From Thermococcus kodakarensis KOD1 (lineage in GTDB: Archaea > Methanobacteriota_B > Thermococci > Thermococcales > Thermococcaceae), in contig NC_006624.1 of NCBI RefSeq assembly GCF_000009965.1, positions 480,001 through 512,000 of the forward strand: a DNA stretch of 32,000 nucleotides, in the 5' to 3' direction. Shown piece after piece: positions 2,781-32,000 of this stretch (the stretch's first letter is position 1; every line of letters begins with the position of its first letter). The notes beneath the pieces are model-generated. The model saw only the letters and a list, made by a program, of their open reading frames with translations. It was not told the DNA's origin and ran no database searches. The translations under genes were made by a program, and so were the position numbers.

Positions 2781-3155
2781 GTTTTATACTCTTAAATCTA
2801 GAAATTTGTTTGCGTTTAATTTCATTTATTTAAATAAGACGCTTATATATTTCTATTTAACTTTTTATTTTAGCTAATATTAAAGTTTATCCAATATGCT
2901 TAGAAAATTTGAAGTTTTTTAGAAACTATTACCAATAGTAAAAAATGACAAATTAGTACTACTTCCTGGCGTTAAATAGACAAAGACGAACATTTAATTC
3001 CTAGAAATGGTCGAATGTCAAGAATGCTAATTATTCACTTGAGAAGCCCGCTATCACAAGACCAGTTTTTCATTACGATGAAAGATATTATCGACCGATG
3101 AGATTAGCAAGATTCTAATCTAAAAGACCTTCACTATCATGTTGATCGACCCCTT

Positions 3156-3500
3156 TTGAAATACCGACAACCCAAAAGTAGTCATTTCCAATGCTTCTAT
3201 GAGAGATATTGTCTCACTCCAAAATCTTATTTGAGAGTGCCCTGCCTCTGGAGACAAGCGAGAAAGCTGGATGTGATTCAAGCGATAAAAACTCCGTTTC
3301 TTATAAGATTAAGCGGGAGAGTCTTTGAGAATATCCTCTGGGATGATGTTAAACACGTTGCCGTTAATGATTCCATGTGGTCACTTTTAGGGCAGGTAGT
3401 TTACTTGGCTTCACATTATTTGAATAAGCACCCCACAATAACGAGACCAGCGATGAAGGTCGGCTTATTGGAGAAACTGGTTCCCATAAGAAGTTCCTGA
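3156..3500 (+). CDS. Doubtful hypothetical ORF (114 aa) inside the TIR-bounded segment
   Basis: It is the only ORF of at least 60 aa in the 1.7-kb segment. It has a TTG start, no obvious RBS, a Cys/Trp/His-rich low-plausibility sequence and no recognisable motif. Confidence 0.2.
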   Translation: MKYRQPKSSHFQCFYERYCLTPKSYLRVPCLWRQARKLDVIQAIKTPFLIRLSGRVFENILWDDVKHVAVNDSMWSLLGQVVYLASHYLNKHPTITRPAMKVGLLEKLVPIRSS

Positions 3501-4429
3501 TGAATAAATCCTGCCACGGGTTAAGTAGAACACTGTGCTAGCTACCAGCTGAAGCTATATATGTCTTGCTCTTTTGGTTAACTATGATGTAAGTGCCCAT
3601 TTTTGTACTGCAGTTTTTGATATAATGTACCTTATATGACAAACTAATGAACAATAGCGAGCATAGAAAAGAGAAAAATTGGGGGATTATGCTTACATCT
3701 TGGTGGGGAATAAAGAGGGGCCCAACTCTCTACTTGTGGTGCATGTCTAACGCTCCTATGCCAGACCGGGATTAGTCCAGAGCTATTGCCTGTTGCCCCC
3801 CCTGTTCTATTTTTCGCAGACTCGTATTTGCGTCGTTCGAGAGCCCGCTCTTTTTTGGCCTTCTGGAAAAGGTAGTATACTCTTCGTGGTTTATGAGGAT
3901 ATATCCGGCCTATAGAAACCCTTAAGCTTACTTCTCATATCTTGGAAAGGGCCTAGGCAGGTACTTTTTGTGAATTCCTGGCTTTCGAGTAGTTTGTGAG
4001 TAGGCCTTCTCCACTGGGAGGGGTAGTATAGGTGACTGTGGGCTCAGCTTCTATCTCTTTCCAGCTTCCTCTTCACGTTGATCCATAACCACCTTTAATT
4101 GTAACTGGAATTTGGTTGTGTGATAGCTGGCTTATTTATGCAACTTTCCCTGTTTTGAGTGCATGTTTTGAGCGGACCTGCTAATTCATTCATTGCTCCT
4201 TGTCGCTGGTAGCTCAGCCTTTTCTGCTGGCCCTCTATTGACTATAGTTTTGCCCCTTTAACAACTTGGTATTGTAAAAACTTGTGATTTTATACACAAT
4301 TAAAACGTAATTTTATTACCCATTTTATTTAAAACATATTCAAATTTCTTTGTTTTGTATTTATATCACGAGCTTTTTATATAAATTTTATGAAATTGAT
4401 ATTTATCAGTTTATTTACGCTATATTAAA

Positions 4430-4459
4430 GTAACAACTCACCCAAAAATCTGAGAGATA
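4430..4459. repeat. Right terminal inverted repeat of the 2751-4459 segment
   Basis: GTAACAACTCACCCAAAAATCTGAGAGATA is the reverse complement of 2751-2780 at 27/30 positions. Confidence 0.75.
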
Positions 4460-4575
4460 ACTCTGCAGGGAAATTTTAGGCTGCCCTAACAAAATTCAAA
4501 AGGGCTTTAGATGCCGAGAACACCTAAGAAAAGACACAAGATGCCAAATCTGGCGAATAAAAACTTGTTAAGGCT

Positions 4576-5452: not shown

Positions 5453-6015
5453 CAGCCCTTTCCTTTTTCCACCATTGCGACATCTGTTCCGCATTTTTCT
5501 CTCAGTTCATCAAGTATTCCATTGGCCGCTTTGAACAGTTCATCGTAGTACTCATCGTTGAACTTCTCCATGGCCTCCCTGGCCAGCTTTGCTATGACAA
5601 CTGCGTAGGCTCCAGTGGTCTCGCAGTCCTCGTTCTCCACGATCATCGGCATCATGCTCACTAGGTAGCCAACGAATGACGCCAGGAGCTTTTCCCAGTC
5701 CCTTTCAAAGCCGTTTTCGTTGAGCCATCCCTTCAGGGTTATGAAGACCTTGACCACCGGCTTGACAACCGCGTACTCGTTGAAGCGGCGGTAGCGGATG
5801 AGGAGGTACTGAAGGAGCGACACCAGAAAGCTCCTGACGACCTCCTTTCCAAGCCCATTTTCCTCAACGAACTTCTGGAATTCGACTAAGCCTTCCCTTC
5901 CAGATTTCTCAAAGGCGTCTATAACTCCGGGATAAGGCGGGTTGAACTGAGAGAAGTCAACATCTCTCATCCCCTCGATCTGCGGCAGGATTTTCATGAC
6001 GGTTTCAGCTTTCAT
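5449..6015 (-). CDS. Hypothetical protein (188 aa)
   Basis: Clean ORF with a 4-nt overlap with the end of the convergent queD gene. Composition looks coding. No motif recognised. Confidence 0.5.
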   Translation of the reverse strand: MKAETVMKILPQIEGMRDVDFSQFNPPYPGVIDAFEKSGREGLVEFQKFVEENGLGKEVVRSFLVSLLQYLLIRYRRFNEYAVVKPVVKVFITLKGWLNENGFERDWEKLLASFVGYLVSMMPMIVENEDCETTGAYAVVIAKLAREAMEKFNDEYYDELFKAANGILDELREKCGTDVAMVEKGKGC

Positions 6016-16518: not shown

Positions 16519-17076
16519 ATGTTAGAGCTGATGAGGGAAGGTCAGGTTTACGAGCTCCTTCTAGTCTCAAAGTCCAACGTCACCCCCGTTGGCGTCGTAA
16601 GAAGGGGAGCGACGCTCCATTTCAAGCTCTTCCCTGGAAAAAGCTTTAGAGATTTGCTGGAAAACAACCGGATCGCCCTTCAGATGACCTGGGACGCCGA
16701 GCTCCTCGTGAAGACAGCCCTTAACCTCGACGTGGAGCTTTCCTTTGAGTCTCATGATCAGTATCGATGGATACAAGGACTCCCTGGCTGGCTGGGAGAA
16801 GCCCGGTGCAGAAGAGATGTCTGGACGGACGGGCTCGGGACTACAGAGGTTCTTAAATGTGAATTCTTCCCCGAGAAGAGGCTGGTAGGAAATGCCCGGC
16901 CAATTCCCTTTAGCAGGGCAGACTGCGTTCTTGTGGAGATGGCGGTTCTCTTCACAAGATACCTTGTCAAACCTACCTTGGAGCTTAAGAACAGAATCCT
17001 TGACCTTTACGCCCTCTACAGGCATCTCGGTGGAAACTCTGAGGCGGCAGAATACATCGTTGGACATCTCGATTGA
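16519..17076 (+). CDS. Conserved hypothetical protein, possibly DUF447 (split-barrel flavin-binding-like)
   Basis: About 185 aa. The N-terminal pattern YELLLVSKSNVTPVGVVRRGATLHFKLFPGKSFRDL recalls DUF447 proteins, but this is weak and from memory. A GAGGTGA RBS precedes ATG 16519. Confidence 0.45.
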   Translation: MLELMREGQVYELLLVSKSNVTPVGVVRRGATLHFKLFPGKSFRDLLENNRIALQMTWDAELLVKTALNLDVELSFESHDQYRWIQGLPGWLGEARCRRDVWTDGLGTTEVLKCEFFPEKRLVGNARPIPFSRADCVLVEMAVLFTRYLVKPTLELKNRILDLYALYRHLGGNSEAAEYIVGHLD

Positions 17077-19261: not shown

Positions 19262-19338
<77 letters not shown>

Positions 19339-21480: not shown

Positions 21481-21668
21481 CCCCACACCCCCCGGAGCGT
21501 GAAGCAGTACTCGTCCTTCACAACCGCGCCCTTGCGCCCGAGCTCGTCGAGCGCGCTGGCAACCTCTTTCGCGGGAAGGCCAGTCCTCCTGACCAGTTCG
21601 CTGAACGTGGCAGGGCCATCCTCGAGGGCCCTCTGGATTAGAAAGGCTGACGGGATGCGCGCGATCAT
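21477..21668 (-). CDS. Small winged-helix DNA-binding protein (63 aa)
   Basis: The pattern FSELVRRTGLPAKEVASALDELGRKGAVVKDE is HTH plus wing. Its ATG overlaps the PCNA stop codon (ATGA). Confidence 0.6.
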   Translation of the reverse strand: MIARIPSAFLIQRALEDGPATFSELVRRTGLPAKEVASALDELGRKGAVVKDEYCFTLRGVWG

Positions 21669-22426
21669 GAGCGACCCTCCTCGACTCTTGGTGCGATCAG
21701 GAAGCTGACCTCACCGGCATCCCGAACCATGTACTTCAGAAGCAGTGGTATGTCAAAGCCAAACCGAATGATGACTTCATCAGCATCAGCGAGACTCCTT
21801 AGGATGTCCTCGAGATATGCAACCCCGTACGCACTCTTCGCCTTTGTCATCTTGTGCTCCAAGTCAAGGAGACCTGGATCCTCCATAGTGAGAACGGTTC
21901 TAACCTCGGAGTCGTTGCCCTCCGCCTTGAAAGTCAATTTCTCAGGGGTAGCCATGAAGTAGATTGAGTCGGAGACAAGCTTTGCGGCCTTAACGGCTCT
22001 TTTCAGAGCTCCAGCGAGCACGACGGCCTTGACAGTCCATGGCAGGCTCGGAATTTCAATCTCAGGAGTATTGGCGTCTATTAGAGGGAGCTTGAACCAC
22101 GTGTTCTCATCACCGAGCAAGCCGACCTCGAGGAAATTCTCTCCACCCTTGCGGAGAACAAGCGTATCCCTGCTCCTTGCAAGCTTAAGAACCTTCAGGA
22201 AACGCTTTAGATCAAAGGCTATCGCTTCCTCACTCTCGACGGAGTACTTGGAGAAGAGCATTTCTGGAAGGTTGAGGTCAACGAGGACGACCCTGCTCGG
22301 GTCTATAGCACGCATCTGAATTCCTTCCATGTTAACCTGGAATACTGCCTCATCGAAGAACTTCTCAAGCGTGGCTATCAGGCTCTCAAACTCTCTAGCC
22401 GAATCAAACACAATCTCAAAAGTCAT
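21665..22426 (-). CDS. pcn: DNA polymerase sliding clamp (PCNA), element-encoded paralog
   Basis: 253 aa from ATG 22426: MTFEIVFDSAREFESLIATLEKFFDEAVFQVNMEGIQMRAIDPSRVVLVDLNLPEMLFSKY... ending in FLIAPRVEE. This is the characteristic archaeal PCNA N-terminus, two-domain length and C-terminal LAPR-type tail. The track ORF starts 15 codons upstream at a GTG. Confidence 0.88.
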   Translation of the reverse strand: MTFEIVFDSAREFESLIATLEKFFDEAVFQVNMEGIQMRAIDPSRVVLVDLNLPEMLFSKYSVESEEAIAFDLKRFLKVLKLARSRDTLVLRKGGENFLEVGLLGDENTWFKLPLIDANTPEIEIPSLPWTVKAVVLAGALKRAVKAAKLVSDSIYFMATPEKLTFKAEGNDSEVRTVLTMEDPGLLDLEHKMTKAKSAYGVAYLEDILRSLADADEVIIRFGFDIPLLLKYMVRDAGEVSFLIAPRVEEGRS

Positions 22427-22557
22427 GCCATCACCTCCTCGGAAGAAGATGAAGAGGAGGGCTCGTCGCACTCATTTAGATACTCTTTCGTGTCGTCGGC
22501 GAAGACGTCAATGTCATCGTAGTCTATCTTCACGAAAACAAACGAATACTCTCTCAT
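22423..22557 (-). CDS. Small acidic/Ser-rich ORF (44 aa), below the track threshold
   Basis: MREYSFVFVKIDYDDIDVFADDTKEYLNECDEPSSSSSSEEVMA. Its ATG overlaps the upstream stop and its TGA overlaps the PCNA ATG, so it fits the coupled chain exactly. Confidence 0.4.
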   Translation of the reverse strand: MREYSFVFVKIDYDDIDVFADDTKEYLNECDEPSSSSSSEEVMA

Positions 22558-23037: not shown

Positions 23038-23246
23038 ACGCGGAACAGCTTGTAGCTCGACTCGACCGAGCGAACAACGAAACCATCACTTTGCAGGGCT
23101 TCAACCGCCTTGAGGAAGCCCTGAAAATCCTCCCACGAGGCTGGCGTCGTGAGGCTCAGCACTACGGCACCAGGAACCTCCGAGGGCTTGGTGATGCTCG
23201 TCTTCGGGCCGAAGTCAGGAGAGTTCTCCTGGAAAGGCTCAGACAT
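23001..23246 (-). CDS. Hypothetical protein (81 aa from the internal ATG)
   Basis: The track ORF 23001-23339 overlaps the upstream gene by 100 nt. Starting at ATG 23246 (MSEPFQENSP...) leaves only an 8-nt overlap. Confidence 0.5.
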   Translation of the reverse strand: MSEPFQENSPDFGPKTSITKPSEVPGAVVLSLTTPASWEDFQGFLKAVEALQSDGFVVRSVESSYKLFRVWLRREEEWASG

Positions 23247-23484
23247 TGGAAGCCACCCCCATAGGGCTAAATCTGAAAACAAGCGCGTCACGGTTCCGGT
23301 GGAAGTAAATACGCTCCAACTGGAACCCCTCCGCACCAAACACGGTCTCCAGATACACTAGCTCGCTGGCCTTGACCCCGCCATAGACTACCACTTCCAC
23401 GCCGTTGCTGGCCGGCACTACATCAGCCCGGTTCGGAAAGGCCTTCACAACCTCCTCCCGGGCATACTCAAGCCCCGACATCAT
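23239..23484 (-). CDS. Small conserved element protein (81 aa), paralog of 27342-27572
   Basis: 4-nt overlap with the Rep stop codon. By hand alignment its C-terminal 46 residues share about 17 identities with the 76-aa ORF at 27342-27572 (GxExxxxGG...E...E...G..L(E/D)RIY(F/Y)HR..D.L..RF). Confidence 0.65.
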   Translation of the reverse strand: MMSGLEYAREEVVKAFPNRADVVPASNGVEVVVYGGVKASELVYLETVFGAEGFQLERIYFHRNRDALVFRFSPMGVASNV

Positions 23485-25568
23485 ACACGACCACCTCCCG
23501 TGACGACATACGTGTCAACAATCTCAAACCCAAGCTCCCTCGCTCGGGCCTTGTTCAGAGAATAGCGCCCATCCTTCGGGAGAATCACCAACTCCCGCTC
23601 AAGCTCAGTGATAACCTCTCTGAGCTCCTCCTCCTGGACATTGAGGATCTTCAGAAGTTCGTCAAACGTGAAGCTGTTCACTGCAAGGACATCCACAACC
23701 CGCTCAGCGAGCTTGAGGTCAGCCTCAATCTTTGACTCCGAGACCCCGAGGAGATCAAAGAACTTATCGAGGGTTGTAACGGCAACCCTAGGCCTTGCTG
23801 AACCAAGTCTCCGTTGTACAGGGTAATCCCAATTAAGAAGATCGCAAAGAGTCTTGAAATTATAAACATCTAGTCTGGTGTCCGCCCTGATGGCTTCAAG
23901 TAGAGACTTCTTGATTATGACTTCATTACCTCTCACGACAAAGTATGGACTAAGCTCATGCTCCAGCACATAGAAGACTCTGTCTTTTGGAGTTGTGGAA
24001 CTGTCCGCGTAGCGGGAATAACGGAAATAAGTCTCATCAAAGTGCCTCCTAAGCCATGTGACAACCTTTTCCCTCTTCTCATCATCAAGCTCCTCGCGGT
24101 AGTTATCCACCAGCTCGGCATTCTTTAGCCACTCAGGGATGTCAAGCCCGGCATACTCGTAAAGCCTCTTCACAAGTTTCTCGGCAAGATCTTCCCACGG
24201 TAAGGCAAGGAGTTCAGGCTCCTCTTTAATCACGTTGAAAACAAAGCGTCCAATATCAGCGAGGTAATCTAAGTACGGGACAATCGAAGTCTCAAAGTAG
24301 TGAGCGATCTCTGGAGGTATCTTATCCACCTTCGAGAACTCAACGGTGAAAAAGCGCCTCCTAATGGCCTCATCCTTAATCCCTGGCATATTAGCGTTGA
24401 AAGCAAGAGTTGCAAGGGCAGGATACGGCCTCCTGATGTTCTTCCCAACACTCTTGGTTCTGAAAAGGTATTGCTCGGGAGCGTTTTTAATGAGGTTGAA
24501 GAAATTGTCCCCCTCATCTCCAAAGTTCAGGGACTTGAATAGGGGCGCCGCCTCATTGATGACAATAACAGAAGCTACTGAAGAGATTGTTTCGCCAAAG
24601 TTGTAAACGCTCCAAGAAGAACCAATAGAGGTCACCTTACCAAGCGGCTTCCAAAGGTATGAAATTACCTTGGAGATGACCTGAGTCTTTCCTGTCAGAG
24701 ATTCGCCTATGAACAAGAGATAAGGGATCCAGCGGCGCTTCTCGTTGTAAACTTTATATGCATAACCGAGGCCCGCAACTAAGGCCCACTTGAATATCTT
24801 TCCAAACTTGACCGACCAAGACTCATACCATCTCTTATCAGGATTGGCTTTAACGATCTTATCTAAAAGCTTCAACGCGTCATAAATCCTGACGCGAGAA
24901 GGCATTTGTGTATCAAAGCCGTACGCCTCAAGTTGCCTAGTCTTGGGGTTCCAGTAAATTCCGGGGGCCAGAGGTTCATGCACATGCTCAACAGCCTCAA
25001 GGAGGCGAGCAAGGGCAAGAATAGTATCTATCGCTTCCTTTGCGAGAGCCTCACTCAGAAAGAGACCTCCAACCTCATTCAACTTGTCGAGAAGCTCAAC
25101 CTTTAAGGCAGGTCCAAGCTCTCGTATGTAAATCCCTGAGAGAGCTCTCTCGGCGATGACCCACCGATACAGGGTTGGAGCATCCATGTTGGCCTCCTCA
25201 GCGGCCAGCTCGATGGTGAAGTCGTGGACTTCTCTTATTGCAACAGGTACAAAGTTAAAGACAGTCCTGTCGTGAACAGCAAACTCTTCTTCAACTTCCT
25301 CGCCAGTATCTTCATCTTTATATTTCCTCTTCCGGATCCTGTAAAGCGCAACGCGGGGGTTCTTGTAGTCGAGGACCCAAAACTCCCTCCCCTTACGCTT
25401 GAAGAAGATTGTATACGGGTCGGGATCGTGAGGCCAGCCCCTGAACTCTGCAGGGAGAAACTCCATGTCGAGTTCTCCTGAGTCCTTGCTCGCTTTTGTA
25501 AGGAGGTCTCCGAATTTTATGACGATCGGTGAAAACTGAATGTTGTCACTGTTCCACTCTTCGTCCAT
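23481..25568 (-). CDS. Replication protein with SF3-type helicase P-loop domain and C-terminal winged helix (695 aa)
   Basis: Walker A LLFIGESLTGKTQV, Walker B-like SVIVINEA and motif C-like LAFNAN follow SF3 order and spacing. The C-terminus (FTFDELLKILNVQEEELREVITELERELVILPKDGRYSLN) is wHTH-like. I did not recognise the N-terminal 280 aa (no clear primase motifs). Confidence 0.72.
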   Translation of the reverse strand: MDEEWNSDNIQFSPIVIKFGDLLTKASKDSGELDMEFLPAEFRGWPHDPDPYTIFFKRKGREFWVLDYKNPRVALYRIRKRKYKDEDTGEEVEEEFAVHDRTVFNFVPVAIREVHDFTIELAAEEANMDAPTLYRWVIAERALSGIYIRELGPALKVELLDKLNEVGGLFLSEALAKEAIDTILALARLLEAVEHVHEPLAPGIYWNPKTRQLEAYGFDTQMPSRVRIYDALKLLDKIVKANPDKRWYESWSVKFGKIFKWALVAGLGYAYKVYNEKRRWIPYLLFIGESLTGKTQVISKVISYLWKPLGKVTSIGSSWSVYNFGETISSVASVIVINEAAPLFKSLNFGDEGDNFFNLIKNAPEQYLFRTKSVGKNIRRPYPALATLAFNANMPGIKDEAIRRRFFTVEFSKVDKIPPEIAHYFETSIVPYLDYLADIGRFVFNVIKEEPELLALPWEDLAEKLVKRLYEYAGLDIPEWLKNAELVDNYREELDDEKREKVVTWLRRHFDETYFRYSRYADSSTTPKDRVFYVLEHELSPYFVVRGNEVIIKKSLLEAIRADTRLDVYNFKTLCDLLNWDYPVQRRLGSARPRVAVTTLDKFFDLLGVSESKIEADLKLAERVVDVLAVNSFTFDELLKILNVQEEELREVITELERELVILPKDGRYSLNKARARELGFEIVDTYVVTGGGRV

Positions 25569-25579
25569 TGAAACTCACC

Positions 25580-25747
25580 TCAGGTTTGCTCTACAAGCTC
25601 AGGCATCACATAGGCGAGAAGCGCGCGGAGGGTTTCATCCTCCGTCACTTTCTTTCCCCGTTCCATGAACAATTTGCCTCTGAACTTCTGAAACAGTTGA
25701 TAGGTAGACTCCCGAACATACACAGCACGCCACCCTTCAGACGGCAT
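25580..25747 (-). CDS. Small RHH-like protein (55 aa), below the track threshold
   Basis: MPSEGWRAVYVRESTYQLFQKFRGKLFMERGKKVTEDETLRALLAYVMPELVEQT has a strand-helix-helix pattern. It ends 12 nt upstream of the Rep ATG and is the first gene after the promoter and iteron region. Confidence 0.5.
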   Translation of the reverse strand: MPSEGWRAVYVRESTYQLFQKFRGKLFMERGKKVTEDETLRALLAYVMPELVEQT

Positions 25748-25761
25748 CGTCACCACCATGT

Positions 25762-25802
25762 ATACTGTTTATCAGTATTATACTGATTTTCAGGATATAT
25801 AA
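25762..25802 (-). promoter_or_regulatory. Putative promoter and operator of the RHH-Rep operon
   Basis: On the minus strand, AAAGC-TTATATAT (plus-strand 25795-25802) looks like BRE plus TATA, about 50 nt upstream of ATG 25747. Between the TATA box and the start lies the palindrome ATACTG-TTTAT-CAGTAT (25762-25778), with a third ATACTG at 25780-25785. Confidence 0.4.
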
Positions 25803-25860
25803 GCTTTGTGTGGACCCTTTAAGACAGTATTGCTCAAAGGTGAGAATTTACAAATTCAAA

Positions 25861-26251
25861 TAGTAAGGGTGTCACAGTCTGGCCAGGTGTGACGCAAGTG
25901 TGACGGATGTGACGGGGGTCTAAGGGCTTTAAATCCTGAAAAAAGGAATCTGCGGGGAGTTTAGTGTCACACATGTCACACCCCATAAAAATGTGCCTAT
26001 ATTATTTCACATAGCAACTCTTCAATATTCGTTATTATGACAATATACTATGGTTTAAATTATAGAATATTTGTCATTATGACAAAATACCGCGCAATCT
26101 GAAATTAATACCTTTATATATTTTTATAGAGTGTGACACTGTGACATTAAAGAAGACAGGAGAATGGCTTATTTCAAAAATAAAGCGAAAAAACCCTGCG
26201 TCACACCCGTCACACCCCGTCACAGTTGGTGGAACTGTGACACCCTTACTA
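25861..26251. promoter_or_regulatory. Dyad-symmetric iteron field; putative replication origin or control region of the element
   Basis: An 18-bp perfect inverted repeat, TAGTAAGGGTGTCACAGT, forms the two ends (25861-25878 and 26234-26251). Twelve TGTGAC/GTCACA cores are present. TGTGACG x3 lies at 25888, 25899 and 25908, mirrored by CGTCACA x3 at 26199, 26208 and 26218. A TGTCACA pair at 25965 and 25974 is mirrored by a TGTGACA pair at 26132 and 26140. The central AT-rich region of about 145 bp contains the palindrome TTGTCAT-T-ATGACAA (26071-26085) and a direct repeat ATTATGACAA (26034 and 26076). Confidence 0.6.
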
Positions 26252-26671
26252 ATCATTATTGTAAATGCGCTCAAGTATCTTGCGCTCCTGCTGTTCGTCA
26301 ATGGCTTCAAATTGACTTTTTGGGGATAGGGTTGGCCCCATCTTGTTCGTTATGAGCGACTTGACATGGATGTAATCCACAAGCAGAATCTCTACAAAAT
26401 CGCCGACTTTAAGACCGAACCTGTCCCTGACGGGTTTGGGAATTGTGAAAACTCCACGATCATACAGCTTTGCTACCGCAAAAACGCGACCGATTATTTT
26501 GCGATTTTGATCTGGAATCCTTATTATTACTATAACAAAGTCTCCATCCTGCAAACCAAAGTATTCTCTGATATAAATAGGAACCATAACCCTACCCTGA
26601 GGTCTTACTCTGCTCTGAAACTTGGCTAGTGGCTCGACTACCTTTGCCTCTTGGTGATCCTGCTCGGTCAT
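26249..26671 (-). CDS. Tandem AbrB/SpoVT (swapped-hairpin) domain DNA-binding protein (140 aa)
   Basis: It has two SpoVT-AbrB-like units: RVRPQGRVMVPIYIREYFGLQDGDFVIVII and KLYDRGVFTIPKPVRDRFGLKVGDFVEILLV. Its first 19 codons form leader copy 1, which is repeated at 28749-28817 and 31411-31478. Confidence 0.75.
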   Translation of the reverse strand: MTEQDHQEAKVVEPLAKFQSRVRPQGRVMVPIYIREYFGLQDGDFVIVIIRIPDQNRKIIGRVFAVAKLYDRGVFTIPKPVRDRFGLKVGDFVEILLVDYIHVKSLITNKMGPTLSPKSQFEAIDEQQERKILERIYNND

Positions 26672-26684
26672 TGGTCTCAGCTCC
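26617..26684 (-). repeat. Leader repeat copy 1 (RBS, ATG and first 18-19 codons of the AbrB-like gene)
   Basis: GAAACTTGGCTAGTGGCTCGA (26617-26637) is identical to 28749-28769 and differs at 2 of 21 positions from 31411-31431. The invariant 13-mer GCTAGTGGCTCGA is at 26625-26637. It encodes M-T-E-Q-D-H-Q-E-A-K-V-V-E-P-L-A-K-F-Q. Confidence 0.8.
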
Positions 26685-26821
26685 GTTGGTTGTTTATCCC
26701 GTATCTATTCCGTATTTGTTATGGTTCTAATAAACTCTATGGTAGAAAAGGTTTGCGAAATTTTCTCCGCTATGGGAAGTTCCCCAAGGAGTGTTGAGAG
26801 AAAAGATAAAGAATTGGGTCT

Positions 26822-27340
26822 TTACTTGGGGAGGCCAAGGTTTCTTTTGAGTTGGGTGTCAATTTCCTCGAGGCATGCGTCACATATCCTGTCCTGTTGT
26901 TCTTGTGGGAAGTCTTTTAGGGCCTTGGCCATGGCTTTGTTGTACATATCCTCTAGTTTCCTAATCAAGGCGAAGATTTGTAGCAGGTGTTTGTAGTCTT
27001 GGGGTTCTATGTACAGCGAATAAATGATGGAACACTCTTTTTTCTGGTTTTCACAGTAGTATTTAGTAGCCTTTAGGATAAAGTAGAGGCTGTTGCCGAG
27101 GCATTGGAGTTCCATTAGGTAAAAGATGTATTTTCCTCCAGAGGTGCCGTCAGGATTGCGCTCAGTCCCTTTGAGTTCTATCTTTGCTATTTGGGTGGGG
27201 AGGAGGGTTATGTAGTCTTCGTAGGGTTCGTCGAATTCCCATTCTATGAGTTGTTTTAGGTGTTGGACTGTCTCAATAGTGTATGTTGTGGAGGTTGCAA
27301 GCTGGCTCCATACTTCGAATATTTTCCTCACTGTGCTCAC
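26822..27340 (-). CDS. Hypothetical protein (172 aa)
   Basis: GTG start one nt after the stop of the 76-aa gene. It is AT-rich, with several Cys residues (CLGN, CENQKKEC, CDAC). No family recognised. Confidence 0.5.
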   Translation of the reverse strand: MSTVRKIFEVWSQLATSTTYTIETVQHLKQLIEWEFDEPYEDYITLLPTQIAKIELKGTERNPDGTSGGKYIFYLMELQCLGNSLYFILKATKYYCENQKKECSIIYSLYIEPQDYKHLLQIFALIRKLEDMYNKAMAKALKDFPQEQQDRICDACLEEIDTQLKRNLGLPK

Positions 27341-27341
27341 C

Positions 27342-27572
27342 TCAGTCTCCTGGTTTCTTGAATCTGATTGCGAGGGTATCGCTGATTCGGTGATAATATA
27401 TTCTGTCGAGGACCAGTCCGCCTTTCCAGGCCGCGTTTTCTATTTCCCTAAATTCTTGGCCAGAAATGCCTCCATGGATGTGAATCTCTATACCTCCATC
27501 CGTGATTCCTACATGCCCCTTGGTGGACACTATACGAGATACAATGTCTTGGAGTTCTTTTATAGAATACAT
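27342..27572 (-). CDS. Small element protein (76 aa), paralog of 23239-23484
   Basis: See the hand alignment for 23239-23484. The shared C-terminal signature is LDRIYYHRISDTLAIRF versus LERIYFHRNRDALVFRF. Confidence 0.65.
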   Translation of the reverse strand: MYSIKELQDIVSRIVSTKGHVGITDGGIEIHIHGGISGQEFREIENAAWKGGLVLDRIYYHRISDTLAIRFKKPGD

Positions 27573-27695
27573 GGGATCACCTCAATTCTAGAACAATGAG
27601 TGGTAGCTAATAAGACTTTTGGGTTTCATTATATCTCGTATCAGATCAAAACAGTATTAAGGAGTAAATATCATTAAGAGTTTTGGTGAAGTTGT

Positions 27696-28703
27696 ATGGT
27701 GCGTGCTGTATATGAAATTGAAATTGGGGGGAAGATCTATACAATACCTTTCATAAACGGTGGTTCTGCAGGATATATTGTTGAAGAAGCCGAAGAGAAA
27801 AACGAACCGGCCGCATACATAGTCCCATTATCTTCTGGTCTTTTGGAAGTTATGATTGATTTAACAACGACTGAATTTGCACTGACTAAGGAGACTCAGG
27901 AGGTACTTAGGAAGCTGGTGCGAGAACTTCATAAAAAAGCTCTCTCAAATGATAATGAGCATGTGCCTAGAAATGAGTTGTGGTTTGAGGTCAACAGTGA
28001 TTGGGTGTCCTTTTCTATACCTAACAGCCTTGTTGATGAAGCGGTTGCCAATGTTGCAAAAATAGCACTTAATCCTGAGAATTGGAGAAAGATAACTGTT
28101 CTGAGGTGCCCTGTGTGTGGCCGTAGAGTTAGGGAAACTGAAACAGATTTAATCGGTATCTTCCCTGATGATGAGAATATTCAGATTTTATTCTGTCCTG
28201 AATTTGATCAGCGGTTTAGGGGTCAACATGTTGTGGCGTTCAAGTGGGATGGAGAGTGGAAGCAACCAAGTTATTTTTACCATAATCCCGAGCGGGACGG
28301 TTTGATTGAAGTCAAGAAAGGTAGTTATGACAATGTGACTCTTTACCTCTTGTACTTGGAGGCAATTTCAGGAGACAATGTTAATTTCAAACGTCCTAAC
28401 CTTGAGTGGATGAGGGCAAAGATCCTCTGGAAAAATGGGGAACCTGTTGGGTACTATGCATACTCGGTGGATGCCCATAAGTATCCGACACTTCATCAAA
28501 TATTCGTGAGGAAGAAGTTTAGAAGACAGGGGCATGCTACAATGATGCTCAATGATTTTCTTAACTCGTTTCCGGGAACTGTGCTGATAGAAGATCCTAA
28601 TGAAGCCACTCAAAATCTTCTTGTAAAGCTTAGCCTTGCAAGGCGCGTGGATAGAGGAATTGAATCAACCGGACGCATTATGTTTCTCCCTGGTGGAATA
28701 TAG
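27696..28703 (+). CDS. Fusion protein: unknown N-terminal domain with a Cys pair/zinc-ribbon-like segment plus a C-terminal GNAT acetyltransferase-like domain (335 aa)
   Basis: GGTGA RBS. The C-terminus LHQIFVRKKFRRQGHATMMLNDFL fits GNAT motif A (R/Q-x-x-G-x-G/A). The middle segment has CPVCGRRV ... FCPEF. It is the only plus-strand gene in this part of the element. Confidence 0.6.
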   Translation: MVRAVYEIEIGGKIYTIPFINGGSAGYIVEEAEEKNEPAAYIVPLSSGLLEVMIDLTTTEFALTKETQEVLRKLVRELHKKALSNDNEHVPRNELWFEVNSDWVSFSIPNSLVDEAVANVAKIALNPENWRKITVLRCPVCGRRVRETETDLIGIFPDDENIQILFCPEFDQRFRGQHVVAFKWDGEWKQPSYFYHNPERDGLIEVKKGSYDNVTLYLLYLEAISGDNVNFKRPNLEWMRAKILWKNGEPVGYYAYSVDAHKYPTLHQIFVRKKFRRQGHATMMLNDFLNSFPGTVLIEDPNEATQNLLVKLSLARRVDRGIESTGRIMFLPGGI

Positions 28704-28713
28704 AGTATATTTC

Positions 28714-28803
28714 CTATCTTTTCCTCTCACCGTGGTCTAACCTGGCATGAAACTTGGCTAGTGGCTCGATCACTCGCGTTCCCTGCTCGTCTTGGCCGGT
28801 CAT
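28714..28803 (-). pseudogene. Leader repeat copy 2: truncated AbrB-like 5' fragment (29 codons)
   Basis: MTGQDEQGTRVIEPLAKFHARLDHGERKR*. The ATG lies 7 nt after the stop of the 459-aa nuclease gene and shares the GGAGCTGA RBS-like block with copy 1. The nucleotide repeat spans 28749-28817, with the invariant 13-mer at 28757-28769. No AbrB domain body follows. Confidence 0.45.
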
Positions 28804-28809
28804 TACTCT

Positions 28810-30189
28810 TCAGCTCCTTTTGTCTTTTGGTGTGGTTTTGGGTGTGAGGAAGATTTTTATGTATTCGTCAATGTATTTTGTTTTGAATTTGCTTTCTAAT
28901 TCGCGTACGGCTTTTCCACAGGTCTCTCTAAACATGGGTATCTGTTTTTTGTCTATGATTTTTATCCTCCAGGCGTGTTTGTGTCTGTGATTTCTTTTGA
29001 GGTACCCTTTTAGGGGCCCTGTTGAGAGTCTTTTCAGTGAATCATTAACTCTTTTCTTGATTAGATCTCTGTATTCTCCGTGTAGGAACTGGTAGATTGA
29101 GTAGGCGCTTGAGGTGTATAACTCGTGTGCAAGCTCTCCTGTAGTAAATTCGCGTTCGGTTAGGGTGTTCATATCAACTTCAAGATCGATTAGCATAATT
29201 AACTCGGCTCTCATTTCGTCTAGGGCTTTGCCAGCTTTCAGGAGTAGGATGTCTTCTGAGATTCTAATTTCGTCTTCCTCTACTTCGTATTTTCCTGGAG
29301 CTATCTTTTCGAGGGTGTTTAATAGTTGTTCCCATTTTTGGTCTTGCTCGTTGGGATCATCGATGGGCAATTCGCTCTTTTTGATTATTTTTCCTTTTGG
29401 GATGATGATATCATCTTTAAAGACCATCCCTTTTGTTGGCAGTTCTTGTCCTAATGTTGCAAATTCTATTAGTTTGTTTATGATGTGGATTTGAAAGATC
29501 TCAGCGTCGTCATTTGGATCAAAGGGGAAGAGTACATAAGAAGGTTTGTCTTTTAGTCTCCATTTTATTGGGAATACTTGGTTTAATTCGGGGTTTTTGT
29601 ATTCTCCTTTTACTAACTCTATTTCTTTTACAACGGGATTGGTGGGGTCTTCGGATTTATCTGGTGGATTTATCTCGATGATTCTAATGATTTGGATCCG
29701 GGTCTCGTTGGAAAGCGTTTCGTTGTTATCTATGTCTTTATAAGAAAAGTATGAGACGTCCGCTTTGAGTTGAGTGGGACGTTTTTTGAAGGGTATTCTT
29801 GCTTGGTCAATTATTATTTCTGGATGCTCTATCAAGTAGAGATATTTTTGTAACTGTTCATGATTTGCTTGAAAGCTTTTACATTCAAAGACTACAATGT
29901 GTTCTTTCTCATAATTCGGAAGGATTATGTCGGGAGTTACCCCTTTCCCATTCAGGTCTTCTTTCTCTACATTCCTAAAATGGATGTGTGCTTCTATGCT
30001 GTTTTGTACTATTCTATAACCTTTTTTATAGAGATCGTTGGGGAATTTGGGTGTTGGGGTAGCAAGGTTTAGGATGATATTCATCAACTTAGTATGTGCT
30101 TTCTGGAATTTTGATAACTCTTCAAGAGTACGGATTGGGGTACCTTCATATTTAGATAGTTTAAGATATTTATCTAATCCTGATGCCAT
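28810..30189 (-). CDS. RecB/Cas4-like PD-(D/E)xK nuclease-domain protein with a long unknown C-terminal region (459 aa)
   Basis: I place the start at ATG 30189 (GAGGTG RBS 7 nt upstream); the track ORF extends to 30243. Nuclease motifs occur in order: IEAHIHF (E), GVTPDIIL (hhhD), VVFECKS (E-x-K) and QLQKY (QxxxY). The basic C-terminus has an HTH-like segment (FTTGELAHELY...RVNDSLKRL). The gene overlaps the upstream gene by 20 nt. Confidence 0.65.
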   Translation of the reverse strand: MASGLDKYLKLSKYEGTPIRTLEELSKFQKAHTKLMNIILNLATPTPKFPNDLYKKGYRIVQNSIEAHIHFRNVEKEDLNGKGVTPDIILPNYEKEHIVVFECKSFQANHEQLQKYLYLIEHPEIIIDQARIPFKKRPTQLKADVSYFSYKDIDNNETLSNETRIQIIRIIEINPPDKSEDPTNPVVKEIELVKGEYKNPELNQVFPIKWRLKDKPSYVLFPFDPNDDAEIFQIHIINKLIEFATLGQELPTKGMVFKDDIIIPKGKIIKKSELPIDDPNEQDQKWEQLLNTLEKIAPGKYEVEEDEIRISEDILLLKAGKALDEMRAELIMLIDLEVDMNTLTEREFTTGELAHELYTSSAYSIYQFLHGEYRDLIKKRVNDSLKRLSTGPLKGYLKRNHRHKHAWRIKIIDKKQIPMFRETCGKAVRELESKFKTKYIDEYIKIFLTPKTTPKDKRS

Positions 30190-31333
30190 ATTGGGGCACC
30201 TCGAGATAAGCTTTGGCATCATAAGTCTGTTGGATGTTTGCAAGGAGCCTTAGTGCAGTGTTCCCGCAGGAGCCCTTTGGGAGATATAATCTAGCCCACC
30301 AGGGAGTAACTTCTAACGAGAAATTATCTCCATTGTGAAGGTCAGTTCCGACTATAATATACATGTCTTTTTCTACTTGTTTTGCAAAGCCCCAAATCCT
30401 GAATGGCTCTTTGGGTGTTGTAATTGCTTTTGCAAAGAGATCTAAATCAGAGATTTCTTTTTTGAACTCATATACGAGTGGGATTTTCTTTTCCCAATCC
30501 CATGAGGAGTAATCAATAAGAGAGTCCTCTATGTATTTCAAGTTGTTTCTATATGTGTGTACAACACTATCGATAAATTCCAAATGTTCATCGAAGGATG
30601 TTCCTTTTGCTGTGAATTTACCCCAATAATACAGATCTTCTAAGACGAATTTGTCGGGGTACTCTTTCTCAACGAGTTTAATCCCAATTTTTGTTAGTCT
30701 GGTCATGTATCGGAACTTCTCATGCTCTTCAACGATCTCAAGGAGATCTTTAACCAATTCACCTGAGCCATCAATTCTTAGTTTGCTAACTTTGTTCTCC
30801 TTTTTTTCTTCCTCGGTGCTAAAAGCAGTCTCGTCATGTTTAATGGAGATGCTTCTAAGATAAACATCTTTAAAGGATATATGCATGAATTTCTTTAGAA
30901 GCTTGTTTGATAACCATAGTTTATCTAATCTCGATTTTATTTGGCTAACAAATTTGTTATAAGCACTATCAACGTCTTGGGCCTTGTCGAGAGTGAATAC
31001 TCTCCAGAATCTCGAATCTTTGGCATCTAAGAAGAAGTGAACTTGAAGTTTTTTATCCTTATCCGTGATATCTATTCTGTATAGTAGGTAATCTTCAAGA
31101 GGTTCTACTTTAATTGAATCAAACAAGCCTCTCAGGACGTATTTGAGGAATTTTGGTGAGATATTCGACTCAATGACATACGTTTTAACAAGATTTTGGT
31201 CTGGTTCCAATTTTTGTTCTTCCAGTATCTCAGCATAACTGCGAGCCATGTTTACCTCTAACCATTCGTAGAGATCTCCACGAGTCTTAATGTCTTGCAC
31301 ATGTGTTTGCTGTCCTAATGTTTGAGGACTCAT
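30170..31333 (-). CDS. Hypothetical protein (387 aa), partner of the nuclease gene
   Basis: A long clean ORF in very AT-rich DNA, which makes a chance ORF unlikely. I saw no P-loop or other recognisable catalytic motif. It is translationally coupled to the nuclease gene. Confidence 0.62.
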   Translation of the reverse strand: MSPQTLGQQTHVQDIKTRGDLYEWLEVNMARSYAEILEEQKLEPDQNLVKTYVIESNISPKFLKYVLRGLFDSIKVEPLEDYLLYRIDITDKDKKLQVHFFLDAKDSRFWRVFTLDKAQDVDSAYNKFVSQIKSRLDKLWLSNKLLKKFMHISFKDVYLRSISIKHDETAFSTEEEKKENKVSKLRIDGSGELVKDLLEIVEEHEKFRYMTRLTKIGIKLVEKEYPDKFVLEDLYYWGKFTAKGTSFDEHLEFIDSVVHTYRNNLKYIEDSLIDYSSWDWEKKIPLVYEFKKEISDLDLFAKAITTPKEPFRIWGFAKQVEKDMYIIVGTDLHNGDNFSLEVTPWWARLYLPKGSCGNTALRLLANIQQTYDAKAYLEVPQYGIRIR

Positions 31334-31360
31334 ACTTCATCACTCTAAATCTTTGATGAT

Positions 31361-31465
31361 TCAAATCTTAATTTTTTTGGTTAATGTTAATATGTCCTTG
31401 ACTCCATTCTGCAACTTCGCTAGTGGCTCGACGACTCTGGCTTCGCTGGTGTCCTGGTCGGGCAT
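31361..31465 (-). pseudogene. Leader repeat copy 3: truncated AbrB-like 5' fragment (34 codons)
   Basis: MPDQDTSEARVVEPLAKLQNGVKDILTLTKKIKI*. The nucleotide repeat spans 31411-31478, with the invariant 13-mer at 31419-31431. It sits 27 nt upstream of the 387-aa gene and downstream of a promoter-like AT-rich region. Confidence 0.45.
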
Positions 31466-31523
31466 TGGCTCACCCCTCTATGTTCTATCAAAATCAGAAT
31501 ATAATGTCTCCAAACATATTAAA

Positions 31524-31550
31524 ACGTTTTCCAGCGTTTGGCAACGTTTA
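31524..31550. promoter_or_regulatory. Three 10-nt-phased (A/G)CGTTT repeats in a divergent intergenic region (candidate operator)
   Basis: The units are ACGTTTTCCA, GCGTTTGGCA and ACGTTTAAAA. CGTTT occurs at 31525, 31535 and 31545, exactly 10 nt apart, and the first unit lies inside the palindrome AAAACGTTTT (31521-31530). The site lies between leader copy 3 (minus) and the 118-aa gene (plus). Confidence 0.4.
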
Positions 31551-31602
31551 AAAATTAAATCGCACAATAAAAGAGGGGAGTAACTAGAGAGGGGGTTAGT
31601 GC

Positions 31603-31959
31603 ATGCTCTCGGATGATAATAATTGGGTTAGTGGTTTTAATCCTTTCGATGAGGGTAGCAAGGAGGTCCAGCGCGAGATAGAATATAGCTTCTTCAAAAA
31701 GGCCGTTGTTGAGTTGCTACTGATCCCTCTGCTCGTGTGGTCTATAATGGTGCTCACTATAACTCCTTTCGGAGCCGATCCCAATTTTGAGTTGTCCTTT
31801 AGAAGTTTCCACGTTAAGGGATCTATGTTTGTGGTAGGGCCGTTTATAGTTATGCTGTTGTTCCTCTGTAGATTCCCAAGTGTATGGTATCAGATGTATC
31901 AGTTTAAACTCAAGTATATGGAAACGATATTAGAATCTCTTAAGCGTTCTCAAGAGTAG
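31603..31959 (+). CDS. Small membrane protein (118 aa, two predicted TM helices)
   Basis: GAGGGGG RBS and hydrophobic stretches VVELLLIPLLVWSIMVLTI and MFVVGPFIVMLLFLC. No family recognised. Confidence 0.5.
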   Translation: MLSDDNNWVSGFNPFDEGSKEVQREIEYSFFKKAVVELLLIPLLVWSIMVLTITPFGADPNFELSFRSFHVKGSMFVVGPFIVMLLFLCRFPSVWYQMYQFKLKYMETILESLKRSQE

Positions 31960-32000
31960 CGCAAAGCTGAGTATTCCCACAGGTACTGTCTTATAAATAT

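Follow-up and report, generated by a model that had tools for sequence, protein, structure and literature searches.

A dyad-symmetric iteron field, the putative replication origin of the integrated element TKV3 of Thermococcus kodakarensis, and its shared layout in pT26-2-type replicons

The closest described relative of the locus analysed here is the putative replication origin of the plasmid pT26-2. Soler et al. (2010) predicted this origin in the large intergenic region between the genes for t26-20p (AbrB-like) and t26-21p (PMC2926602), and the repeats of that region have been called 'reminiscent of iterons' (PMC2926602; PMC6972569). The same authors proposed t26-22p as the replicative helicase and described it as distantly related to AAA+; soluble protein was not obtained (PMC2926602). 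In the pT26-2 family, Badel et al. (2019) assigned a predicted origin to 24 of 29 members; they state that there is no conserved origin consensus and that location and sequence seem extremely variable (PMC6972569). For TKV3, the origin was put 'inside TK_RS02910' by GC skew only, without dot-plot support (PMC6972569). The window, by which we mean the whole 32,000-nucleotide stretch of Thermococcus kodakarensis KOD1 analysed here (contig NC_006624.1, positions 480,001 to 512,000), carries the integrated element TKV3, which is a member of the pT26-2 plasmid family (PMC2926602; PMC6972569). Between the AbrB-like gene and the rep operon of TKV3 lies a 391-bp field of 12 short repeats that mirror each other around an AT-rich core. 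We read this field, with a probability of roughly 0.7, as the TKV3 copy of the origin of the t26-22p-type module, iteron-type and probably bidirectional (theta).

The 695-aa Rep encoded on one side of the field is exactly TK0587, and the AbrB-like protein encoded on the other is exactly TK0588 of T. kodakarensis KOD1. TK0587 is listed as t26-22p-like in both earlier surveys (PMC2926602; PMC6972569), and TK_RS02910 should, judging from the numbering of the tags, lie near these two genes. The field is a member of the already predicted pT26-2-type origin. It is homologous to the putative origin of pT26-2, with the same flanking genes, a Rep that is 50% identical, and spacers and core edges that can be aligned, and it differs from it in the repeat itself, which is TGTCATAG in pT26-2 and TGTGACR in TKV3. 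Because the pT26-2-type origin had already been published as a family-level prediction, the origin inference made by a first-pass annotation that had only the letters of the window to go on is largely a rediscovery. Neither PMC2926602 nor PMC6972569, in the text available, mentions that the two arms mirror each other exactly, that this layout is kept throughout the t26-22p-type subgroup, or that the repeat core switches. New here are a base-level map of the field, the mirror layout shared by 17 loci, at least ten repeat cores that switch between them, and a candidate specificity patch in Rep.

The anatomy of the field is regular (Table 1). Of the 18 TGTGAC/GTCACA hexamers in the window (both strands, 32 kb), 12 fall within 25871-26241, the number that had been claimed, whereas 0.07-0.14 copies would be expected in 391 bp from the rate outside the field or from shuffled sequence (Poisson P ~1e-20). 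Their strands read -,+,+,+,-,- / +,+,-,-,-,+, as the first-pass annotation had described, and the start-to-start spacings are 17, 11, 9, 58, 9, 157, 8, 60, 9, 10 and 17 nt, in agreement with a spacing of 9-11 nt in the triple arrays. The start and end positions of mirrored pairs sum to 52111-52113, placing the centre of the dyad at 26056 with an agreement of 1 bp or better, so that the symmetry claimed for the whole field holds. Both ends are formed by an 18-nt perfect inverted repeat (TAGTAAGGGTGTCACAGT), found where it had been reported, and the two 125-nt arms are 71% complementary overall. On the right, the terminal repeat covers the stop codon of the AbrB-like gene, again as noted before. 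The AbrB-proximal spacer may have a second role as an oligo-T terminator of this gene.

The centre of the field is indeed AT-rich, with a GC content of 0.26 as against 0.50 and 0.45 in the arms, although at 151 bp it is somewhat longer than the ~145 bp first estimated. Two features described within it could be located: the palindrome TTGTCAT-T-ATGACAA at 26071-26085, and a 10-nt direct repeat, ATTATGACAA, at 26034 and 26076 (offset 42 nt), which can be followed over 25 nt with 88% identity. A change in base composition had been placed exactly at the right arm; the shift is real (GC 0.517 from the tRNA gene to the field, 0.404 to the right of the field) but gradual. TGTCAT/ATGACA occurs 18 times in the window, three of these in the TKV3 core (26037, 26072 and 26079), where two copies make up the 7+7 palindrome. 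TGTCAT is the iteron core of pT26-2, a plasmid that shares both the AbrB-like type and the small-protein N-terminus of TKV3, and the copies in the TKV3 core may be a remnant, or they may reflect a second binding specificity. An Rfam search of 25500-26700 gave a chance-level match only.

To compare the field with its relatives, Rep homologues were collected together with their upstream DNA from pT26-2 and pGE2, one contig of a metagenome-assembled genome (MAG), nine metagenome contigs, and the contigs encoding eight database homologues. Among these, 17 loci had enough upstream sequence for comparison, TKV3 included. The Rep family is small, forming 17 clusters among 5.8 billion proteins. A scan of reference-genome contigs with a single Rep gave nothing, the same scan with a Rep alignment gave the one MAG contig, and viral contigs gave nothing. 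TK0587 is 49.8% identical to t26-22p of pT26-2 over 100% of the query and 49.9% identical to the pGE2 protein. The order AbrB-like gene, intergenic region of ~450-500 bp, open reading frame (ORF) of 52-56 aa and rep, all on a single strand, is kept in TKV3 and its relatives, and the TKV3 field, AT-rich and with many direct and inverted repeats, can be aligned with the intergenic region that holds the putative pT26-2 origin.

The mirror layout is present in 17 of 17 Rep-linked loci. Non-conservation of the repeats in related elements had been named beforehand as one of the observations that would refute the origin inference, and all 16 of the other loci carry a mirror field. Measured from the Rep ATG, it occupies -690 to -290 in 15 of them, and in 16 of the 17 when TKV3 is counted. 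In the remaining locus, L009 (L numbers denote collected loci), the field lies ~1.5 kb upstream of Rep, displaced by an insertion. Read from the AbrB-like gene towards rep, the layout consists of one reversed and 3-4 direct repeats, a spacer of ~55 bp, 1-2 reversed repeats and an AT-rich core of 80-150 bp, followed by 1-2 direct repeats, a second spacer of ~55 bp, and 2-3 reversed and 1-3 direct repeats. L009, a metagenome element with a TGTAACC-type field, also has, immediately ahead of Rep, a 100-aa AbrB-like ORF that takes the place of the small protein (4206-4540 and 5693-5995).

Within this constant layout the repeat itself changes. At least ten variants of the repeat core, with the consensus rGTnAnn, occur among the 17 loci: TGTGACR in TKV3 and L015, TGTGACC in L017 and L012, TGTCATAG in pT26-2, TGTCACG in L019, TGTAACC in pGE2 and L009, TGTTACC in L003 and L010, TGTTACG in L016 and L011, A/GGTTACG (RGTTACG) in L004 and L013, TGTAAGG in L005, L006, L018 and L020, and TGTAATG in L007. 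In a 15-way alignment, conservation extends over the spacers, the core edges (AAAAA... and ...ATAGGGGTGTTTTT) and, within the repeat, its G, T and A; the remaining positions of the repeat vary. The pair formed by pT26-2 and L010 is a mosaic in this respect, with identities of 30-58% in the two iteron arms and of 97% in the AT core that they enclose. The rep genes of the same two elements are 80-100% identical save for one 60-nt island at 63%, which corresponds to the patch in the Rep wing discussed below. Such near identity of the AT core between diverged arms indicates a constraint other than the iteron reader, for example a host factor, a primer start or an RNA.

The 97%-identical core of this pair lies at -508 to -390 from the Rep ATG, and a core of the pT26-2 type, with palindromes such as TGAACAGATGTTCA, recurs in L003, L015, L017 and L019, which represent four further iteron types. 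The C-terminal 40 residues of the small ORF are nearly identical in pT26-2, L010, L015 and L019, and its first 10-12 residues fall into three types, each of which travels with the adjacent origin arm. A recombination breakpoint therefore appears to lie inside the small gene in these four elements.

These comparisons argue for the origin inference of the first-pass annotation. In each locus the field accompanies Rep and is mirror-symmetric about a core of low GC content, and across the family its non-repeat blocks are kept while the specificity positions of the repeats switch in concert in both arms. In pGE2, the minimum of the detrended cumulative GC skew is at 5848, within the field (5529-5985), and the maximum lies roughly opposite. 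The position of this minimum would fit a replication origin, which the mirror fields of the relatives and the alignment to the putative origin of pT26-2 support. The cumulative GC-skew minimum of the window, at ~26.4-26.8 kb, is confounded by the change in composition.

Rep contains a segment that in part changes along with the repeats. The label 'SF3-type' (helicase superfamily 3) that had been given to Rep finds no support, in that no significant Pfam, PHROG or PDB sequence match was obtained. By eye, P-loop motifs can be recognised (Walker A GESLTGKT at residues 288-295, a hydrophobic run ending in NE at 333-339, AFNAN at 389-393 and RRRF at 403-406) that do not tell SF3 from AAA+, and the ATPase core has a predicted local distance difference test score (pLDDT) below 50 in the full-length AlphaFold2 (AF2) model. 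A Foldseek search of PDB and BFVD with this model gave mostly winged-helix matches and one unnamed viral protein, and the central part of TK0587 matches the primase-polymerase Rep of Sulfolobus neozealandicus. For the C-terminal 186 residues, AF2 (pLDDT 80) predicts two tandem winged helices. The best Foldseek matches of this part are mostly winged-helix proteins (ArsR, MarR and IclR regulators and SelB), though weak (E of 6.5e-3 or higher), and several members of the Rep family have sub-threshold winged-helix matches in Pfam.

In the AF2 model, residues 579-595 form a beta-hairpin that follows the helix 571-577 and represents the wing of the first winged helix. The Reps of pT26-2 and L010, whose repeats differ, are ~95% identical, and 10 of their ~55 differences fall within a 14-residue patch. 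Across the loci, iteron similarity correlates with similarity of this 17-residue wing patch (Mantel r=0.37, p=0.0008), also when the rest of Rep is controlled for (r=0.32, p=0.001) and when the AbrB-like protein or the small-protein N-terminus is controlled for, with p-values that are only indicative given that the 17 sequences are phylogenetically related. Each patch class with more than one member corresponds to one coherent iteron group, most clearly in the 3' half of the iteron: KK[LVI]xG[RK][SN]xR goes with iterons ending in ...ACC, KSIKG[TS]S[HY]R with TGTAA[GT]G, and RRLGGTP[ST]K with RGTTACG. On sequence grounds, the iterons thus seem to track the Rep wing better than they track the small protein or the AbrB-like protein, with exceptions. 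That the wing itself reads the iterons is possible, and we judge it slightly less probable than its converse.

Several observations speak against the field as an origin read by Rep. In pT26-2 the GC-skew minimum, at 16719, falls within rep, the field being 1.4 kb away. At >2000x coverage, marker-frequency analysis of T. kodakarensis found no replication origins, and small spikes at TKV2 and TKV3 were ascribed to recombination (PMC5663688). Given the lack of origin peaks in these data, the TKV3 origin, if it is one, would be silent or weak when integrated. An experimental test of origin function was found for no family member in the searchable literature, where the search for t26-22p was swamped by papers on the prostaglandin 'PGE2'. 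The helicase class given to Rep finds no support in sequence matches. As for the wing, TKV3 and L015 have the same TGTGACR iterons and dissimilar patches, L009 and L017, which differ at iteron position 4, agree in the wing core (KKLNGRSVRVAV), and when single alignment columns are tested for association with iteron type, columns as strong as those of Rep occur in the AbrB-like and small proteins, so that Rep is not set apart. Finally, in the pT26-2/L010 pair the AbrB-like gene and the small-protein N-terminus have been exchanged along with the arms.

The last point also favours an alternative in which the field would serve solely as a large region of transcriptional control. Its repeats would be operators for the AbrB-like protein, the small protein or both, expression of the Rep operon would be set as a copy-number or lysogeny-like control, and replication would start elsewhere or via the host. 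The strongest single per-column association with iteron type is in fact one AbrB column (z=4.9), two genes of DNA-binding type flank the field, and its Rep-proximal arm ends ~50 bp upstream of a conserved presumed promoter. The sequence of this block, ccACAAAgCTTtTATA, resembles a transcription factor B recognition element and TATA box (BRE/TATA). The block separates the field from the small ORF in 14 of 15 aligned elements, and in related elements as in TKV3 it is followed by an element-specific palindrome. The palindrome over the predicted start site is a candidate autoregulatory operator, and more likely to be the operator than the field arm is. With this conserved block and a separate palindrome standing between it and the small gene, the field is not simply the operator. 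The operator alternative that the first-pass annotation had offered is thereby weakened, although feedback of the Rep-proximal arm on transcription would still be compatible with this arrangement.

Neither candidate reader of such operators follows the repeats closely. The small-protein N-terminus MPSEGWRAVYVRE is identical in TKV3, pT26-2 and L019, whose repeats are TGTGACR, TGTCATAG and TGTCACG, and three other repeats are accompanied by an N-terminus of the WKQIVV type. Given an N-terminus that stays the same across three repeat types, the small protein is an unlikely reader of the iterons and was rejected as such. AbrB type A is ~80% identical in TKV3, pT26-2 and L004, which have three different repeats, whereas L005 and L020 share a repeat and have different AbrB types; the AbrB-like protein is therefore unlikely as the sole reader. 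In addition, a 390-bp mirror around a core of 26% GC exceeds what a promoter needs and lies upstream of the promoter, not over it, and the features on the AbrB side are mirrored without a divergent promoter, the AbrB-like gene being transcribed towards the field. Taken as the whole explanation, a control region is unlikely. L015, from Thermococcus sp. 21S7, has three tandem AbrB/MazE-like genes (1105-2366) before its field, where the other elements have one.

The small protein had been labelled ribbon-helix-helix (RHH), a label for which we find no support, since no Pfam, PHROG or PDB profile match to RHH/CopG/Arc was obtained and profile searches gave chance-level matches only, such as MntR and CENP-T. 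Its size, and a conserved [WY][KR]xIxV segment with helix-like segments after it, leave an RHH fold plausible, as judged by eye only. The location of the field beside the operon of this protein and Rep was described correctly, the rep operon being ~100 bp away.

A second alternative is a centromere-like partition site of the parC/ParR type, whose repeats would be coated by a small DNA-binding protein. The parC site of plasmid R1 has a layout that resembles phased repeats in two clusters, and the pitch of 9-11 bp, the two clusters flanking a central region and the ~55-aa protein encoded next door would all fit. However, a Pfam scan found no ParM- or ParA-type NTPase among the neighbours, the small protein does not covary with the repeats, the centre is a conserved AT-rich block, and the operon promoter lies outside the field. 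The adjacent P-loop protein is, moreover, homologous to the helicase part of Sulfolobus primase-polymerase Reps (PMC2926602). We regard partition as quite improbable. Also rejected, as highly improbable, is a field unrelated to replication, be it an inert palindrome or an insertion of the foldback or miniature inverted-repeat transposable element (MITE) kind with terminal inverted repeats of 18 bp. In its favour, a non-coding segment of 391 bp is delimited by perfect 18-nt terminal repeats where the composition changes. The 18-mer, however, has no further copy in the window, the 24 collected loci or the viral contig collection, and no target-site duplication is evident because the inverted repeat runs on imperfectly into the flanks. 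In 16 related elements, moreover, the field is found in synteny and can be aligned, with repeat cores specific to each element, which would not be the case for a recent insertion.

We know of no theta-type plasmid origin of the Thermococcales that has been dissected, nor of any biochemistry on the t26-22p Rep family. As a putative replication origin, the field can be set beside those of other systems. Iteron theta plasmids of bacteria, such as pSC101, R6K, RK2, F and pPS10, have RepA, RepE or pi initiators with tandem winged helices. Like these, TKV3 has repeats (12) beside an AT-rich region and a rep gene, presumably bound by the initiator, two predicted winged helices in Rep, a repeat sequence that varies between replicons, and sites near the rep promoter that could permit autoregulation. 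Bacterial iterons, however, are direct tandem units of 17-22 bp on one side, whereas the TKV3 repeats are cores of 7-9 bp with a pitch of 9-11 bp, in both orientations and on both sides, and in contrast to the small Rep_3/RepA proteins, which recruit a host helicase, the TKV3 initiator would be a 695-aa P-loop helicase-like protein with no Rep_3 match in Pfam. The field would thus work like an iteron origin and yet departs from the bacterial class in two features, the length and tandem arrangement of the unit and a Rep_3-type initiator.

In SV40, with large T antigen and its GAGGC pentamers, and in papillomaviruses, with E1, the origin is dyad-symmetric and the initiator is also the helicase. 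TKV3 shares with these the short inverted repeats, the two-fold symmetry and an initiator with its own NTPase/helicase-like domain, and its layout would suit head-to-head loading of two helicase rings and bidirectional forks. It differs in that the predicted DNA-binding module is a winged helix and not the fold of the viral origin-binding domain, in that the repeats flank the AT core instead of being central, and in size (~390 bp as against ~64 bp for the SV40 core origin); the viral initiators are SF3 proteins, a membership that is not established for the TKV3 Rep. In archaeal oriC, inverted origin recognition box (ORB) elements flank an unwinding element beside orc1/cdc6. Here too inverted elements flank an AT-rich region by the gene of a presumed ATPase initiator with a C-terminal winged helix, but ORB elements are longer and unrelated in sequence, the TKV3 initiator is not Orc1/Cdc6 (no Pfam match), and the TKV3 repeats stand in phased arrays.

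If the field is an origin, the element's own Rep (TK0587) would bind the iterons, with the basic, hypervariable wing 579-595 of the first winged helix as the proposed reader. The mirrored polarity of the repeats would turn two Rep assemblies towards each other, and arrays phased on one face of the helix would favour oligomerisation and melting of the AT core. The ATPase domains could then be loaded at the core and give rise to divergent forks with host polymerases and PCNA, of which the element also encodes a homologue. The Rep-proximal arm, ~50 bp from the BRE/TATA block, may damp transcription of the operon, and switching of the iteron core would set replicon specificity (incompatibility) groups. 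More speculatively, and with distinctly less than an even chance of being right, the t26-22p-type replicons would constitute at least 10 orthogonal initiator/origin pairs in which a few wing residues set the specificity for iterons of 7-9 bp. Wing and 12-14 iterons would change in concert to create new incompatibility groups, the AT core and the rest of Rep would stay fixed, and two Rep rings would be loaded head-to-head in an archaeal analogue of the SV40/papillomavirus double-hexamer origin. On this proposal, residue 584 would track iteron position 4, and the KKxxG+ loop the ...ACC ending.

The base-level map of arms, spacers, core, promoter and operator, with its panel of natural specificity variants and a 17-residue candidate specificity determinant in Rep, makes the published prediction of an origin somewhere in the intergenic region directly testable. 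It could provide compatible shuttle vectors for T. kodakarensis and could explain how the related TKV2 and TKV3 coexist in one genome.

Table 1. Features of the putative TKV3 origin and of the adjoining genes, in positions of the window
Feature	Position	Strand	Remarks
Rep TK0587, 695 aa	23481..25568	-	t26-22p-family P-loop protein, two predicted C-terminal winged helices
Codons for Rep residues 579-595	23784..23834	-	hypervariable beta-hairpin wing; best tracks iteron type
Small protein, 55 aa	25580..25747	-	t26-21p homologue; ORF call starts 25759
Element-specific palindrome	25771-25787 (region 25758..25800)		ATCAGTAT-T-ATACTGAT; between TATA box and start codon; common to L004 and L019
BRE/TATA-like promoter block	25795..25813	-	CCACACAAAGCTTATATAT on minus strand; presumed promoter of the small-protein/Rep operon
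Whole dyad-symmetric iteron field, putative TKV3 origin	25861..26251		hexamers, symmetry, homologous fields in 16 related loci
Left terminal inverted repeat	25861..25878		18 nt, perfect; includes outermost reversed iteron
Outer iteron cluster, Rep-proximal	25871..25913		hexamers 25871(-), 25888(+), 25899(+), 25908(+); -+++ / ---+ pattern recurs in relatives
Rep-proximal spacer	25914..25965		52 bp; T-run block partly conserved across elements (alignment)
Inner iteron pair, Rep-proximal	25966..25980	-,-	TGTGACA type
AT-rich core	25981..26131		GC 0.26; presumed unwinding region
Direct repeats in core	26024-26048 and 26066-26090		spaced 42 nt
Palindrome holding the dyad centre	26042-26071		inside AT core; centre 26056
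Core edges			family-conserved inverted blocks AAAAA... / ...ATAGG..TTTTT (alignment)
Inner iteron pair, AbrB-proximal	26132..26145	+,+	
AbrB-proximal spacer	26146..26199		54 bp; conserved block GGGTTTTTTCGCTTTATTTTTGAAATAAG (minus strand), nearly identical in L015 and L019
Outer iteron cluster, AbrB-proximal	26200..26241		hexamers 26200(-), 26209(-), 26219(-), 26236(+)
Right terminal inverted repeat	26234..26251		18 nt; last 3 nt (26249-26251) are the AbrB-like stop codon
AbrB/SpoVT-like protein TK0588	26249..26671	-	t26-20p homologue; transcribed towards the field

Around the replication module, the window shows the following. A tRNA-Arg (TCT) gene at 19262-19338 marks one end of the element, ~6.5 kb from the field, and tRNA-Arg (TCT) is the integration target given for TKV3 by Badel et al. 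(PMC6972569). Within the element, the PCNA homologue (Pfam PCNA_N and PCNA_C) has its gene at 21665-22471 (-), downstream of Rep and on the same strand. Two paralogous small ORFs, at 23239-23484 (-) and 27342-27572 (-), of 81 and 76 aa and with 28% identity (E 2e-12), bracket the replication module, one directly after Rep and the other two genes past the AbrB-like gene.

A block of low GC content, 26800-32000 (GC ~0.34-0.46 in 400-bp windows), adjoins the field. Its ORFs include one with a GNAT domain at 27696-28703 (+) and two, at 28810-30243 (-) and 30170-31333 (-), without a meaningful family match; PADLOC gave nothing meaningful for the neighbouring low-GC ORFs. The block is probably the AT-rich variable part of TKV3 and HICR2, the heat-induced clustering region in TKV3 that was named in a reverse-gyrase mutant (bioRxiv 10.64898/2025.12.08.692931). 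Two short islands of low GC content lie outside TKV3, at 2801-3200 and 4001-4400 (GC 0.30 and 0.36).

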